A stretch of 37,527 nt of DNA from Gemmatimonadota bacterium (GTDB taxonomy: Bacteria > Gemmatimonadota > Gemmatimonadetes > Palauibacterales > Palauibacteraceae), in assembly GCA_022360695.1 (NCBI GenBank), contig JAKSCH010000050.1:1-37527 (forward strand). Reading direction: 5' to 3'. Position 1 is the stretch's first letter. Every line of letters starts with the position of its first letter. The translations under genes were made by a program, and so were the position numbers. The notes beneath the pieces are model-generated. The model saw only the letters and a program-made list of their open reading frames with translations, had not been told where the DNA came from and did not search any database. Of the stretch, positions 6,171 through 30,810 are shown piece by piece.

Positions 6171-6252
6171 CGTTCGCCGTCTCGGGCGAGCGACCACGCA
6201 CGAGGGCGGTTCGTGGAGCGGGTCGCGCCGTCCCGGTCGTCTCGATCGACCG

Positions 6253-6406
6253 GCCCGGCCTGGCGAGGTGGCCGGCGCAAGGGGGGCGTGCGGTCGATCC
6301 GTCGTCTCTCCTCCTCGAAGTAGGGCTGCCACTCCTTCGTCGTCGCTCCTAGGCCGAACCGCACGAGACCCTGCGCGCGATCCGCCGGGGTTCTTCCGCA
6401 GCCTGC
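6253..6406 (-). repeat. Degenerate solo half-copy of the structured palindromic element
   Basis: 6296-6406 aligns with 27026-27136 (88 of 112 columns identical by manual alignment), with weaker similarity back to 6253/26985. It contains the conserved core at 6301-6351 on the minus strand. Confidence 0.8.
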
Positions 6407-10887: not shown

Positions 10888-11054
10888 CTAGTGGGGTGCA
10901 TCAAACGTCCCTTGCCATTCGAGCGGCGATGCATCCCGCTCGCCGGCGTTGCTCGATCTCGACGTAGCTATGGCTACGCCTTCGTTCTCGCGCCTTGGCG
11001 AGCGGGCGCCTCTCCACTCTCGGTGGTCAAGGGACGTTTGATGTACCACACTAG
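10888..11054. mobile_element. 167-bp MITE-like palindromic element bounded by CTAG
   Basis: 27-bp terminal inverted repeats at 10888-10914 and 11028-11054 (2 mismatches), each ending in CTAG. Inner stem CCCGCTCGCC/GGCGAGCGGG and central hairpin CGTAGC-TATG-GCTACG (10963-10978). No transposase. Confidence 0.75.
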
Positions 11055-25031: not shown

Positions 25032-25061
25032 AGGCCCGGCCGAGCGCCGGGCCTTTTTTTT
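25032..25061 (+). terminator. Rho-independent terminator after pilQ
   Basis: AGGCCCGGC-CGAGC-GCCGGGCC followed by T8. A further 12-bp hairpin lies at 24969-24997. Confidence 0.88.
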
Positions 25062-25122
25062 GTCCGGACGCGACGTCCGAGCCGCGACCGCCGAATCGAG
25101 TCACGAGATCGGATACCAATCC

Positions 25123-26331
25123 TTGAGGCGTATACAGCTGACAACCGCGGGCGAGTCGCACGGACCCGCGATCGTGTCGATCCTCGCCGGGATGCCGGCC
25201 GGTCTCCCCCTCGGCCCGGATGACGTGGCTCGCGAGCTCGTCCGACGGCAGGGCGGGCACGGCCGGGGTGGCCGGATGATGATCGAGGACGACGTGGGCG
25301 AGATCTTCGCCGGGGTCCGTCTCGGCCAGACGATCGGCGGTCCCATCGCGATCCGCATCCCGAACCGCGATTTCCGGAATTGGACCGAGGCGATGGCGGT
25401 CGAGGCGCCCCGGACGGAGGACGAGGAGCTGCTCCGCCGCGTCCACCTGCCGAGACCGGGGCACGCGGACCTGGTCGGGATGATCAAGTACGGGCGCGAC
25501 GACGCGCGCGACATCCTCGAGCGCGCGAGCGCGCGTGAGACCGCCGCACGGGTCGCCGCGGGGGCGATCGCGAAACGTCTCCTGGAGGAGTTCGGCGTCC
25601 GCGTGGAGAGTCACGTCGTGCGGATCGGGCCCGTCGCGGCGGATCCACCGCGCCGGCTCCCTGACGACATCGAGTCGACGGCCGATGCCTCTCCGGTTCG
25701 GTGTCTCGACGAAAGCGCGGCCGACCGAATGGTCGAGGCCATCGACGAGGCTCGGCGCGCGGGCGACTCGCTCGGGGGGGTGTTCGAGGTCGTAGCGCGT
25801 GGCCTTCCGGTCGGGCTGGGCAGCCACGTGAGCGGTGACTCGCGACTGGGAGGGCGGATCGCCGGGGCGCTCATGTCCATCCATGCGATGAAGGGCGTCG
25901 AGATCGGCATGGGATTCGAGGCGGCAGCTACGCTGGGCTCGGGTGTGCACGATGAGATCGAGCGCGATCCGAGCCGCGCGCGGACCGGCGGCTACCGACG
26001 TCGTCGCAACAACGCGGGTGGCCTGGAGGGCGGCATCACGACGGGGGAGCCGGTCGTGGCGCGCGTGGCCATGAAGCCGCTGAGCTCGCTCCGTCGGCCG
26101 CTCGACAGCGTCGACACGCGGACGGGGGAGCCGGCGAAGGCGATCCGCGAGCGGAGCGACGTCTGCGCGGTCCCGGCGGCGGCGATCGTGGGCGAGGCGA
26201 TGCTCGCGCTCGTGTTGGCGGATGCCTGGATCGAGAAGTTCGGCGGGGATTCCCTCGAAGAGATGCGCGCGAACTTCGACGCCTACCTCGCTCGTCTCGC
26301 GCCCCCGGAGACGGAGTCGCCCGAGGGGTGA
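25123..26331 (+). CDS. aroC: Chorismate synthase
   Basis: TAGESHGP, RRQGGHGRGGRM, PRPGHADL, ERASARETAARVAAG, NNAGGLEGG and ERSDVCAVP. Probable TTG start at 25123. Confidence 0.96.
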   Translation: MRRIQLTTAGESHGPAIVSILAGMPAGLPLGPDDVARELVRRQGGHGRGGRMMIEDDVGEIFAGVRLGQTIGGPIAIRIPNRDFRNWTEAMAVEAPRTEDEELLRRVHLPRPGHADLVGMIKYGRDDARDILERASARETAARVAAGAIAKRLLEEFGVRVESHVVRIGPVAADPPRRLPDDIESTADASPVRCLDESAADRMVEAIDEARRAGDSLGGVFEVVARGLPVGLGSHVSGDSRLGGRIAGALMSIHAMKGVEIGMGFEAAATLGSGVHDEIERDPSRARTGGYRRRRNNAGGLEGGITTGEPVVARVAMKPLSSLRRPLDSVDTRTGEPAKAIRERSDVCAVPAAAIVGEAMLALVLADAWIEKFGGDSLEEMRANFDAYLARLAPPETESPEG

Positions 26332-26849
26332 TCGAGGCCGTTCGTAGCGTGTGGCTGGTCGGCTTGTCGGGCTCCGGGAAGTCGACGACCGGTCCGCTGG
26401 TGGCCGATCGGATCGGGTTCGACTTCGTCGACCTCGATGCCCAGATCCAGCGGAAGACCGGCGAAACGATCCCTCAGATCTTCCGTACGGGCGGAGAGCC
26501 GCGGTTCCGCCGGCTGGAGGCCGCGGCGACGAGCGAGATCGCCACCCTGGCCGGCGTGGTCGTGGCGACGGGCGGAGGCTGGATGGCCCGGTCGGACGTG
26601 GAACGTGTCGGGGAGGGCCGCGTACGAGTTTGGTTGCGCGTCAGCCCGGAGGTCGCGATCCATCGGCTGGGCGACGGCGTCGGGAGCGGCCGACCGCTCC
26701 TCGACGCTCCGGACCCCGAGGCGGCGCTTACGGCGCTCTACCGGGCCCGAAAGCCGGCGTACGCCGAGGCGGAGCTGTCGGTCGAGACGGACGGTCGGTC
26801 GCCGGTTGAGGTTGCGGAGGAAGTCGTCCGGAGGTTAGAAGGGTGTTGA
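26328..26849 (+). CDS. aroK: Shikimate kinase
   Basis: GLSGSGKST, DLDAQI, GEPRFRRLE, VVATGGG and RPLL. The stop codon lies inside the left inverted repeat of the downstream element. Confidence 0.93.
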   Translation: MIEAVRSVWLVGLSGSGKSTTGPLVADRIGFDFVDLDAQIQRKTGETIPQIFRTGGEPRFRRLEAAATSEIATLAGVVVATGGGWMARSDVERVGEGRVRVWLRVSPEVAIHRLGDGVGSGRPLLDAPDPEAALTALYRARKPAYAEAELSVETDGRSPVEVAEEVVRRLEGC

Positions 26850-27136
26850 AGAAGTACGGCGGGTCGCGTTCCGAGCGCCACGGCCCCGGATCCGAGGCAG
26901 AACGGCGCAGGCATAGCCAAAGCTACGTCGAGCCGGTCGAACGACGGAGACGGGGCCGTGCCGCCGGAACCGGGCGGCACGGATGCCCGGGCAACGAGGT
27001 GAACGGCGCATGGGTGTCGCGGATTGATCCGTCGTCGTTCCTCCTCGCCGTAGCGCTGCTACGACTCGTCGTCTCTCCTTGCCTGAACCACGCGAGACCC
27101 ATGCGCGCGACCCGCCGTACTTCTTCAACACCCTTC
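26838..27136. mobile_element. 299-bp MITE-like element with perfect 31-bp terminal inverted repeats
   Basis: GAAGGGTGTTGAAGAAGTACGGCGGGTCGCG (26838-26868) and its exact reverse complement (27106-27136). It encloses two oppositely oriented structured cores and a hairpin GTGCCGCC/GGCGGCAC. No transposase and no clear target-site duplication. Confidence 0.8.
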
Positions 27137-27190
27137 GGGGAAGGCGCGGGCAAGACCATCACTCCTGAGCGGGAGATCGAGAAGAGCTAG

Positions 27191-29860
27191 ATGGATTTGG
27201 TGATCGTCGAGTCGCCGGCGAAGGCGCGGACATTGGAGGGGTATCTGGGATCCGGCTACCGAGTCGAGGCATCGGTGGGTCACGTCCGCGATCTGCCCAA
27301 GAGCGGATTGGGCGTGGACGTGGAGAGCGGGTTCGAGCCCGAGTACGTGACCATCGACGGCAAGGGGCCCGTGCTCAAGAAGCTGCGCACCGCCGCCAAG
27401 GAAGCGGAATCCGTGCTGCTCGCCACCGACCCCGATCGAGAAGGGGAGGCGATCGCCTACCACATCGCCGAAGTCTTGGGTGCGTCCAAGAAGGGCGCCG
27501 CGGAACGATTTCGGCGGATCACGTTCAACGAGATCACCAAGACCGCGGTTCTCGCCGCGCTCGAGACGCCCGGAGAGCTCGACCGGAATCGCATCGAGGC
27601 GCAGCAAGCGCGTCGTATCCTGGATCGTCTCGTAGGCTACAAGCTCTCGCCGCTTCTCTGGAAGAAGATCAGCCCCGGCTTGTCCGCCGGACGCGTGCAA
27701 TCGGTAGCGGTGCGGCTCCTCGTCGAGCGAGAACGGGAGCGTCGCGCGTTCCACAGCGCCTCGTTCTGGGATCTGCGGGCCCAGCTCGTCGCGGAAGGCC
27801 GAGAGTTCAGGGCGGATCTCACGGCGCTCGACGACGTCCCGGTGGCGACCGGTCGCGATTTCGACGAGCGGACCGGCGAGCTCAAGAAGGGGCGGCAGGT
27901 CGCGCTGCTCGACGAGGACGCCGCCAACGAGCTCCGCGATGCGCTCGTCGACGAGACGTTCCGCGTCCGTTCGCTCGAGGAGAAGAAGTCGAAACGGAGC
28001 CCGTACGCCCCGTTCACGACCGCCACGCTCCAGCAAGAGGCCAACCGCAAGCTGAACCTCGGAGCCCGCGAGACCATGCGGATCGCGCAGGGGCTGTACG
28101 AGGATGGACTCATCACCTATATGCGCACGGACTCGGTGCAGCTTTCGGAGGACGCGATCTCCGCGATCCGGACGCGCGTGGATGCCCGATACGGGGCCGA
28201 ATACCTGAGCCCGGAGCCCCGCCGGTTCCAGACCAAGTCGAAGAGCGCACAGGAGGCCCACGAGGCGATCCGACCGGCCGGGACCGAGATGCCCACCGCG
28301 AAGGAGCTCGGGCTCTCCAGCAAGCGTGCCGCGCTGTACGACCTCATCTGGAAACGTACGATCGCGACCCAGATGGCCGATGTCCGTCAACGGCACCTGA
28401 CGGCCCTGATCGAGGCCGGCGCAGCGCTGTTCCGCGCCACGGGGAAGGTGATCGAGTTCGCCGGCTTCTTCCGGGCCTACGTCGAGGGGTCCGACGACCC
28501 GACCGCGGCGCTCGAGGATCAAGAGGTCGTCCTCCCTGCGCTCGAGGAAGGTCAGGAGCTCGACTGCAAGGAGCTCGAGGCGCTTCACCACGAGACCAAG
28601 CCACCGGCGCGCTTCACGGATGCGACGCTGGTCAAGGAGCTGGAGGCGGATGGCATCGGTCGCCCGTCGACCTACGCCTCGATCATCTCGACGATCCTCG
28701 ACCGCGAGTACGCCGAACGGAAGAACAAGCAGCTCATTCCCACGTTCGTCGCCTTCGCCGTCACGGCCCTTCTCGAGCAGCACTTCCCGGATCTGGTCGA
28801 TACCGGCTTCACGGCGGACATGGAGGGATCGCTCGACGAGATCGCGCGCGGTCGCCAGGACTGGCGCACCTATCTGGGCGACTTCTACAGCGGTGACGAC
28901 GGGTTTGAGGCACGCGTCCTGGACCGCGAGGGCGCGATCGACCCGCGCGAGGCGTCGACGGTCACGCTTCGTGACCTGAGCCCGAGGATTCGGATCGGAC
29001 GCTACGGCCCGTTCCTGGAGCTGATCCGCGATGAGAACCGGATGACGGCGCCGCTCCCCGAGGGCGTCCCCCCGGCGGACTTGGCCGAGGCTGCGGCGAT
29101 CGAGATCCTGGAGCGCCGCGCCGAGGGGCCCGATCAGCTGGGGGTCGACCCCGAGACCGGTGAGCCGATCTATTTGATGACGGGTCGCTTCGGCCCCTAC
29201 GTACAGCGGGGCGAGATGGTCGAGGGCGGTGACAAGCCCAAGCGGGCCTCGATCCCCGAGAAGGTGCCGTACGACGACATGACGCTGGAGATCGCGCTCA
29301 AGCTGCTCGCGATGCCGGCGGAGCTCGGGACGCACCCGGCGGACGGCAAACCGGTCAAGGTCGGCATCGGACGCTACGGACCCTACGTCGTCCACGAAGG
29401 GGACTACCGCTCGCTCACCGAGACGGACGATCCCCTCACCGTGACCATCGACCGAGCGCTCGAGCTGCTCGCGATGCCGAAGCGCCGCGGTCGACGAGCG
29501 GCCGCGAAGCCCGTACGAGAGGTGGGGAAGCACCCGGACGACGATCAGCCGATCGGGCTCTACAACGGCCGCTACGGACCCTACGTCAAACACGGGAAAG
29601 TGAACGCGTCGCTCCCGAAGGGGATCGAGCCCGAAGACGTCACGGTTCCGATCGCGCTCGAGCTTTTGCAGAAGCGAATCGAGCGGGACGCCGCGAAGAA
29701 GGGCAAGAAGAGGACGACGACGAAAAAGAAGACGGCCAAGAAGACCACCGCCAAGAAGACCCCGAAGAAAGCCGCGTCCAAGACTACGCGCGCGACGTCG
29801 ACCGCCGAGAAACCCAGCGCGAAGAAGTCGAGCGGGGCCGAGAAGACGTCGAAGAAATGA
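27191..29860 (+). CDS. topA: DNA topoisomerase I
   Basis: LVIVESPAKA, GHVRDLP, ATDPDREGEAIA, SAGRVQS, ITYMRTDS, QEAHEAIRP and GIGRPSTYA, then four GR[YF]GP[YF] C-terminal repeats and a Lys-rich tail. Confidence 0.97.
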   Translation: MDLVIVESPAKARTLEGYLGSGYRVEASVGHVRDLPKSGLGVDVESGFEPEYVTIDGKGPVLKKLRTAAKEAESVLLATDPDREGEAIAYHIAEVLGASKKGAAERFRRITFNEITKTAVLAALETPGELDRNRIEAQQARRILDRLVGYKLSPLLWKKISPGLSAGRVQSVAVRLLVERERERRAFHSASFWDLRAQLVAEGREFRADLTALDDVPVATGRDFDERTGELKKGRQVALLDEDAANELRDALVDETFRVRSLEEKKSKRSPYAPFTTATLQQEANRKLNLGARETMRIAQGLYEDGLITYMRTDSVQLSEDAISAIRTRVDARYGAEYLSPEPRRFQTKSKSAQEAHEAIRPAGTEMPTAKELGLSSKRAALYDLIWKRTIATQMADVRQRHLTALIEAGAALFRATGKVIEFAGFFRAYVEGSDDPTAALEDQEVVLPALEEGQELDCKELEALHHETKPPARFTDATLVKELEADGIGRPSTYASIISTILDREYAERKNKQLIPTFVAFAVTALLEQHFPDLVDTGFTADMEGSLDEIARGRQDWRTYLGDFYSGDDGFEARVLDREGAIDPREASTVTLRDLSPRIRIGRYGPFLELIRDENRMTAPLPEGVPPADLAEAAAIEILERRAEGPDQLGVDPETGEPIYLMTGRFGPYVQRGEMVEGGDKPKRASIPEKVPYDDMTLEIALKLLAMPAELGTHPADGKPVKVGIGRYGPYVVHEGDYRSLTETDDPLTVTIDRALELLAMPKRRGRRAAAKPVREVGKHPDDDQPIGLYNGRYGPYVKHGKVNASLPKGIEPEDVTVPIALELLQKRIERDAAKKGKKRTTTKKKTAKKTTAKKTPKKAASKTTRATSTAEKPSAKKSSGAEKTSKK

Positions 29861-30810
29861 CGCGACACGTCGCACCCGCGGGCTCGCGGGGGCGAGCCGA
29901 AGTCGAGTGGCTGGAGGACTTCCTTCGGTACGCAGAGCGCGAGCGCCGTCTCTCCCCCAACACCGTCGCGGCGTACCGCCGCGACCTCGAGCAGCTCGCC
30001 GCGTTTCTCGCCAGCACCGAAGCGGTTGACGGGGGTCGGGACCCGATCTGGGCGCGCGTCGATCGGCTCGCGATCCGCGGGTTTCTCGGACAGCTCGAGA
30101 GCCGCGGTCTCGGGCGCGCGACAATCCAACGGAAGCTCGCGGCCGTCCGCGCGTTGTACGCGTTTCTCCATAGAACGGACCGCCTGACCTCGAACCCGGC
30201 GCGGCTCGTCCGCTCGCCGAAGCGGGAGCGATCGCTCCCGGGCTTCCTGGGGGAGGAAAAGGCACGCGAGCTGTTCGACCGGATCGGAGACGAGGCGGCG
30301 GCCTCCGAGGATCCGCTCGTCCTCCGTCGTTGGGCGCTGCTCGAGCTCCTGTACTCGTGCGGCCTTCGGTTGGGCGAGATCCACGGGCTCGACGTGGCGG
30401 ATGCCGATCTACACGACCGACAGGTGCGGGTGGTCGGCAAGGGCGCGAAGGAGCGGATCGTACCGCTCGGTGGCCGCGCGGCCGGCGCGATCGAGACATA
30501 TCTCGAGGCTCGCCCGTCCGTCGAGACGCGGGCCTTGTTCGTCTCCATGCGTGGAACTCGTCTATCGCGACGGCAGATCCAGCGCGACGTGACCGCCGCG
30601 CTCGCCGGCGTCGCCGACGGTGAACGGCTGACGGTCCACTCGCTGAGGCATACGTTCGCGACCCATCTGCTCGATCGGGGGGCGGACCTCGTGTCGGTCA
30701 AGGAGATGCTCGGGCATGCGAGCTTGAGCACGACCCGGATCTACACGCACACGTCCGTCGAACGGCTCAAGCGGGTGCACTCCCAGGCTCACCCGCGAGG
30801 AGGGGGATGA
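29857..30810 (+). CDS. xerC: Tyrosine recombinase XerC
   Basis: [40 protein letters not shown] and [14 protein letters not shown]. The topA-xerC-hslVU context is conserved in many bacteria. Confidence 0.9.

Follow-up and report, generated by a model that had tools for sequence, protein, structure and literature searches.

The window analyzed here, a stretch of 37,527 nt from a Gemmatimonadota bacterium (genome of 4.0 Mb in 546 contigs, 68% G+C), carries the genes for chorismate synthase, shikimate kinase (aroK), topoisomerase (topA) and an XerC-type tyrosine recombinase in succession. A 299-bp element, which we call M2, separates aroK from topA and contains the aroK stop codon within its left end. 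The features of this locus, together with a second, decayed M2 relative (M2b) and a copy of a sister element (M1) found elsewhere in the window, are collected in Table 1.

Table 1. Genes, repeats and structural elements of the window discussed in the text.
Feature	Position	Strand	Remarks
M2b, decayed relative of M2, one module	6215-6406	-	77% identity to element positions 158-297 (141-nt match, 6264-6404)
M1 copy	10888-11054	-	about 60 other copies in the genome, for example at G000:C303:7207-7289
Chorismate synthase	25060-26331		upstream of aroK
aroK (shikimate kinase), tail truncated by insertion	26328-26849	+	Pfam SKI, residues 15-170 of 173, profile positions 2-158 of 159
Host TA dinucleotide (target)	26836-26837	.	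left junction; present in the empty site of G001 (AGGTTA/C...)
Left terminal inverted repeat of M2	26838-26868	+	first 17 nt agree at 16/17 with the IS end in G077:C474
Module copy 1 (arm 1)	26879-26964	+	nhmmer match, E 8.5e-15
Module copy 1, closing stem	26879-26887 / 26952-26960		
Module copy 1, inner hairpin P4	26910-26917 / 26922-26929		
Central 10-bp hairpin, between the modules	26956-26982	.	stem 26956-26965 / 26973-26982, 100% complementary
Module copy 2 (arm 2), inverted	27006-27106	-	nhmmer match 27094-27027 on the minus strand, E 1.5e-10
Module copy 2, closing stem	27006-27021 / 27091-27106		
Module copy 2, P4	27047-27065		
Right terminal inverted repeat	27106-27136	-	next bases GG, not TA
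Former last 18 aroK codons, orphaned	27137-27190	+	GEGAGKTITPEREIEKS, then TAG at 27188-27190
topA	27191-29860	+	341 nt downstream of the aroK stop, formerly abutting
XerC-type (tyrosine) recombinase gene	29857-30810		after topA

The architecture that the preliminary description had read from the letters was reproduced in all its parts. The perfect inverted ends measure 31 nt per arm, are 100% complementary and enclose 237 nt; apart from these two sites, the window has no match to the 31-mer at up to 3 mismatches, and neither does any of 100 shuffles. The two inverted cores correspond to matches of the module profile on opposite strands, and arm 1, a small hairpin and arm 2 are all present at stem coordinates computed from the sequence, the stem of arm 1 pairing 26875-26894 with 26945-26964. 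The aroK ORF does end at a TGA (26847-26849) supplied by the left repeat, which encodes the codons Glu-Gly-Cys in front of it. ORFs of both strands had been noticed to start with MLKKYGGSR and to contain ATRRTSSTPF, as expected from reading the same repeat twice, and the coding capacity of the element amounts to just such mirrored ORFs of 98-115 aa, with no transposase gene. The proposed multi-branch fold is predicted on either strand, with energies of -184 and -186.5 kcal/mol and z-scores of -9.7 and -9.9 against shuffles. The central hairpin is poorly conserved in sequence across M2 copies. A search of Rfam 15 with positions 26300-27700, at E values up to 10, gave no useful match, the sole hit inside the element scoring 16.7 bits (E 4.5) where the gathering score is 40.3, and scans of 26300-27400 for sigma-70 promoters and intrinsic terminators returned 0 sites of either kind. 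In public contigs from three DNA runs of a single study, the breaks are an end at 26867 and starts at 26838 and 27107; all of them fall at the 31-nt repeats, and 0 contigs cross the interior of the element. No RNA run is listed for the stretch.

Comparison with relatives revealed the empty site. Forty relatives and the source genome were searched with the topA start and 29 loci were fetched, at 28 of which aroK lies directly upstream of topA with a stop-to-start spacing of 0-219 nt; at the remaining one, aroK was not found by tblastn. The element is absent between the two genes in all 28 relatives keeping that order, and the module profile matched none of the fetched junction loci. In the nearest relative (G001), aroK ends with ...GKQEIEKS and a TAG that abuts the topA ATG (TAGATG). 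When exactly 299 nt are removed in silico from the window, the aroK tail continues in frame to ...RRLGEGAGKTITPEREIEKS and a stop codon, followed by TAGATG as in G001. Since the excised window agrees with the G001 junction, the last 18 codons of aroK have been replaced by Glu-Gly-Cys and a stop. The preliminary description had spoken of a recent non-autonomous insertion: the insertion stands, and "recent" holds only in a relative sense, the element being absent from the nearest genome sampled and its two ends being identical.

The aroK tail varies freely among relatives, and the Pfam match to the kinase domain spans 15-170 of the 173 residues that are left, so the shikimate kinase is probably intact, judging from its sequence, despite the lost tail. 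The abutment of the aroK stop and the topA start, which might have coupled the translation of the two genes, is lost. The insertion could also affect aroK-topA expression. As a separate observation, the gap of 145-219 nt between aroK and topA in a sister family (L087, L089, L091, L092, L094) holds a conserved stretch, with a TTGACA-like box first and then ...GATTCCTGTTAGCCATCCTCAGCGC..GG...GGGGTAAGCGGTGGACGGG, perhaps a leader or a small RNA; at the same loci, topA seemingly carries a lysine-rich N-terminal extension.

M2 is a mobile family. A search for other copies of the element, beyond the one intact M2 and the decayed relics of the source genome, found some M2 match in 21 of 61 genomes (60 relatives and the source genome), and full or near-full copies with 74-81% identity are dispersed at unrelated loci, on different contigs of G036, G004, G017, G001, G026 and G030, many of them at contig ends. 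Fifteen copies align end to end, with conserved ends. Overall, copies measure 167-340 bp, and internal-deletion derivatives of 167-249 nt retain both ends. When prokaryotes were scanned with one genome for each species, the M2 end motif came up in 28 stretches, all of them titled Gemmatimonadota, Gemmatimonadales or Longimicrobiales. Within the window, M2b keeps an intact right end (6376-6406), a degenerate left end and a module match (6359-6276 on the minus strand); this relic and four or five like it on other contigs have ends beginning GCAGGCTGCGGAAGAA, which by inspection agree at 15 of the first 16 nt with the end of a resident IS5-type IS. A solitary M2 end at L124:715-1232 lies in frame ahead of a lipoprotein gene, whose longest ORF starts with MKKYGGSR... 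within the repeat, a later start (MRPGLL...) being equally plausible. The literature on miniature inverted-repeat elements and Gemmatimonadota yielded no description of such an element; the main text of PMC11602168 has 0 mentions of "Gemmatimon", and its supplementary MITE lists might hold M2.

M2 copies start with GAAG(G/C)(G/C)TG(T/C)TGAAGAAGTACGG, and their flanks are mostly cTA...TAg. Among 20 distinct two-ended copies, 12 have TA at the left, 15 have it at the right and 8 have it on both sides, whereas the background frequency of this dinucleotide is 1.2%. At the initial G and the final C of the element there are 0 changes in 40, compared with 27 in 120 at six flanking positions (p 3.6e-4). 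We think that TA represents a 2-bp duplication in a cTAg-like target, and a 4-bp CTAG duplication is disfavored; as TA and CTAG are palindromes, flank and repeat are not fully separable. With the host TA at its left and GG at its right, the window copy either made no duplication or lost two bases afterwards. The TA flanks are mostly unrecognizable in the closed genome G243 (2 of 11 at the left, 4 of 11 at the right). Many decayed M2 flanks (L051, L034, L033, L055) have CCAG or CTGG in place of CTAG, which suggests loss of TA by transitions (TA to CA or TG). CTAG is rare in bacteria, and the loss of TA in decayed flanks fits with this. Nested insertions sharing a TA were also observed: an IS630-family element abuts the end of an IS5-type element at G000:C426:5690-8060 (L115, L221), and an IS5-type element lies at a TA beside a solitary M2 end in a Longimicrobiales record (L199:990-2220).

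The preliminary description had likened the end to termini of the IS1182/IS5 type, and this resemblance holds. A 1515-nt contig from another, related genus (G077:C474) consists of TA, an IS with one 487-aa transposase and ends GAAGGCTGTTGAAGAAG / GAAGCCTGTTGAAAAAC, and TA; over the first 17 nt, its left end agrees with M2 ends at up to 17 positions, the window copy reaching 16. No M2 end motif was seen in G077 itself. A 1.29-kb element with a 356-aa transposase was found at G036:C143 and has relatives in the source genome at C96 (84% identical) and C426 (82%, one stop). These elements (C96, C426 and G036:C143) end in TA-GCAGGCTGCTGAA(A/G)AA and agree with M2 ends at 12-15 of 17 positions; the 356-aa IS5-type element is also present in G026. 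By chance, 12 of 97,614 TA-anchored 17-mers of the source genome reach 12/17. The transposases carry the Pfam domains DUF772, DDE_Tnp_1 and DDE_Tnp_1_6. NCBIfam assigns the 356-aa protein to IS5 (274.8 bits, cut-off 140) and places the 487-aa protein between IS1182 (242 bits, cut-off 270) and IS5 (151.5 bits, cut-off 140).

The match between M2 and these IS surfaced only once IS ends were read directly, and a scan of ten DDE_Tnp_1 loci for the M2 end at up to 6 mismatches found none. No autonomous IS with ends identical to those of M2 was found in any M2-holding genome, most of these assemblies being fragmented. Likewise, G004, G017 and G001, which hold many M2 copies, yielded no IS5-type IS, a weak indication given that these assemblies are fragmented. 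A possible autonomous partner was also sought beside about 35 solitary ends in G017, G036, G004, G001, G099, G102, G074, G066 and Longimicrobiales records; these were isolated ends or coding sequence of similar appearance, and none enclosed a transposase.

Taking the empty site, the dispersed copies and the IS-like ends together, we are confident that the 299 bp are a copy of a non-autonomous transposon, the MITE M2, with ends of the IS5/IS1182 type, inserted in the tail of aroK. We hypothesize that an IS5/IS1182-type transposase (DUF772 + DDE_Tnp_1), supplied in trans, most likely excised M2, and that the element was then pasted at a TA inside a cTAg-like site, just past the shikimate kinase domain. 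Because aroK is now read into the left end, 18 non-conserved tail codons have been exchanged for Glu-Gly-Cys-stop, and the topA ATG has been moved 341 nt away from the aroK stop, beyond a multi-branch structure of very high predicted stability.

The TA flanks deserve attention, as TA within cTAg is a hallmark of IS630 elements, and M2 could be a MITE of the IS630/Tc1-mariner type moved by the IS630-family transposases of the genus. Such elements occur both in the source genome (C426) and in 12 of the family's 113 other genomes, and IS630-type ends are found on an abundant sister MITE that shares the inner module. However, the IS630 ends begin TA-GTGT..., those of the source genome agree with M2 at only 7-9 of 17 positions, compared with 12-17 for IS5/IS1182-type ends, and, of 30 IS630 loci, 0 show an end that differs from that of M2 by 6 mismatches or fewer. 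Moreover, IS630 was not found in G017, G004, G001 and G036, the holders of most M2 copies. We therefore regard mobilization by IS630 as improbable. Even less support can be given to an invertible segment, in which the 237 bp would flip through recombination of the 31-nt arms or by means of the XerC-like recombinase and present either module to the aroK-topA transcript. The perfect inverted repeats, the tyrosine recombinase gene nearby (29857-30810) and the opposite orientation of the two modules could be accounted for in this way, but the same architecture at many unrelated loci makes it a property of a mobile family and not of the locus, and nothing shows both orientations. Inversion finds no support and has a very low probability.

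The behavior of the two ends bears on another mode of transfer. In G243, 11 M2-type copies were read (C1; L231, L241-L251), and they differ among themselves by a mean of 3.3 of 31 positions; yet in 10 of the 11, the outermost 20 nt at one end pair perfectly with those at the other. Where a copy has a substitution of its own at one end, the matching change occurs at its opposite end, and the same mirroring is seen in the M2 family of the source genome. A transposase of the DDE type that reads sequence does not by itself explain ends that co-vary. They could have arisen if mismatches were repaired in hairpin or cruciform DNA, or if pairing were under selection. Mirrored ends would also fit a REPIN-like doublet moved as single-stranded DNA by a Y1 (HUH, RAYT-like) transposase, with the ends acting as a stem; compensatory change is described for REPIN hairpins in the relevant part of PMC3116915. 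The two inverted modules, the single Y1_Tnp gene in 5 of 5 genomes tested, the window copy without duplication and the poor flanks in G243 agree with such a doublet. Yet the agreement of M2 ends with those of DDE-type IS reaches 17 of 17 positions, TA stands on both sides of 8 of the 20 copies, and just 1 of 5 Y1 loci has a module no more than 1.5 kb from the gene. REP doublets are also several times shorter than an element of the size of M2, which counts against this origin, and we find it quite improbable. The IS5/IS1182-type MITE is the reading that we retain.

Each arm of M2 is one copy of a module of about 90 nt, the two in opposite orientations, and this module is not exclusive to M2. 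The same module fills M1, an abundant 167-nt MITE of the source genome with 27-nt, cTAG-flanked ends. There, M1 and the module account for 59 BLAST matches to the core (58 without the window's own) and 65 profile matches, many of them less than 100 nt from contig ends. M1 is a main cause of assembly fragmentation, many contigs beginning or ending inside it. Sister MITEs of congeners combine this interior with different ends, some of which agree at 13-17 of 20 positions with the IS630 end of the source genome. Thus, the module rides in MITEs with IS630-type ends, IS5/IS1182-type ends and further end types. No IS locus holds one. A covariance model of the module matched in at least 37 of 151 genomes of the class (the unpublished G154 included) and at least 4 of 9 families, with at most 27 candidates scored per genome, and copies are many in G243, G207 and G195. 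As to the Y1 (HUH) gene, it is single-copy, as a RAYT-like gene should be, at G000:C310:6784-7101 and at one locus each in G017, G004, G001 and G036, and a module lies near it, about 1.3 kb away, only in G001.

The fold of the module is conserved. Its inner hairpin, formed by GGCRTAGCC, a 3-4-nt loop and GCTACGTC, is paired in 91.7% of cells in 42 module sequences from five element types, and 5 of its 8 pairs changed on both sides; 0 of 500 shuffles reach its covariation score. With RNAalifold, 15 full M2 copies give 85 pairs, 23 of them with compensatory changes, some of which lie in the terminal repeats. The module flanks are conserved, unpaired and purine-rich. Its orientation relative to flanking genes shows no bias among the 20 of 62 source-genome copies far enough from contig ends for this comparison, with 4 copies in the same sense and 6 antisense in tandem gene pairs. 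It is tempting to propose that the folded module of about 90 nt, rather than the 299-bp element, is the mobile unit, with a structure-dependent function and moved repeatedly between MITE chassis, although we consider this possibility rather doubtful. If it were true, the module, together with the concerted change of the ends, would point to a selected passenger function in single-stranded DNA or RNA, for instance as a cis-acting mobilization aid or a host-factor site. A functional module would represent a type of passenger new to bacterial miniature transposons.

A still smaller unit was noticed inside M1 and M2 copies. A mini-hairpin of about 21 nt (GGGG-Y-ACCC, a short stem-loop, GGGTC) swaps out 4-6 nt at four or more different places, as an inserted unit would do. 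It occurs in G004 and G036 copies (alignment A1, columns 71-88, 126-146 and 327-345), in G026_C6 and, in the source genome, at C179:5962, C319:46, C446:3474 and C466:1508. In the latter genome it is almost confined to one M1 subfamily, with 10 pattern matches compared with 3 for the reversed control.

M2 is a newly described MITE family of the IS5/IS1182 type, and its insertion in the aroK tail is an ordinary event. Less ordinary are the structured module, which MITEs of unrelated end types have in common, and the way in which the two ends change in concert. M2 explains why aroK ends inside a repeat, why ORFs are mirrored on the two strands and why an "intergenic" gap of 341 nt precedes topA. 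For annotation, it identifies a class of repeats that breaks the assemblies of these MAGs. It also provides a natural case in which the insertion of a very stable hairpin element has cost a gene of an essential pathway its tail and the direct contact of its stop with the topA start.

Among known systems, IS5 and IS1182 (NF033581, NF033551; DUF772 + DDE_Tnp_1 + DDE_Tnp_1_6) share with M2 similar ends and cTA...TAg flanks. They differ in that M2 is without a transposase gene, whereas the IS copies seen here measure 1.29-1.5 kb, and the ends of M2 diverge from theirs past nt 17-20 approximately. The IS5-group and IS1182 elements captured in Paracoccus generated 4-bp repeats, not 2, in the part of PMC3281130 concerned with them. 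A closer counterpart is MITEPye1 of Paracoccus yeei, an IS1182-derived element that, as far as the sections of PMC11578231 devoted to it go, resembles M2 in being non-coding and of intergenic type, with IS1182-like terminal inverted repeats, few copies per genome and a fold predicted to be stable, and for which mobilization in trans was also proposed. According to the same sections, MITEPye1 has 159 bp, 18-bp ends and 4-bp direct repeats, whereas M2 has about 300 bp, 31-nt ends and flanks that are best taken as TA; M2, in contrast, has two inverted copies of a module that is also found in MITEs with other ends, and it belongs to a different phylum. Rickettsia palindromic elements and intragenic ERIC and BOX sequences, in the portion of PMC10969869 that treats them, similarly alter a protein end by a palindromic repeat and spare the domain. 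Compared with the intragenic MITEs of that portion, M2 brings a stop after three codons instead of an in-frame insertion, and only a non-conserved tail is lost. Finally, the REPIN/RAYT system, within the scope of the text of PMC3116915 on its hairpins, shares with M2 the two inverted hairpin units, the compensatory changes that keep pairing and the single-copy Y1 gene, while M2 differs by its long terminal repeats of the DDE type, its TA flanks and a Y1 gene that is without a module at 4 of 5 loci.
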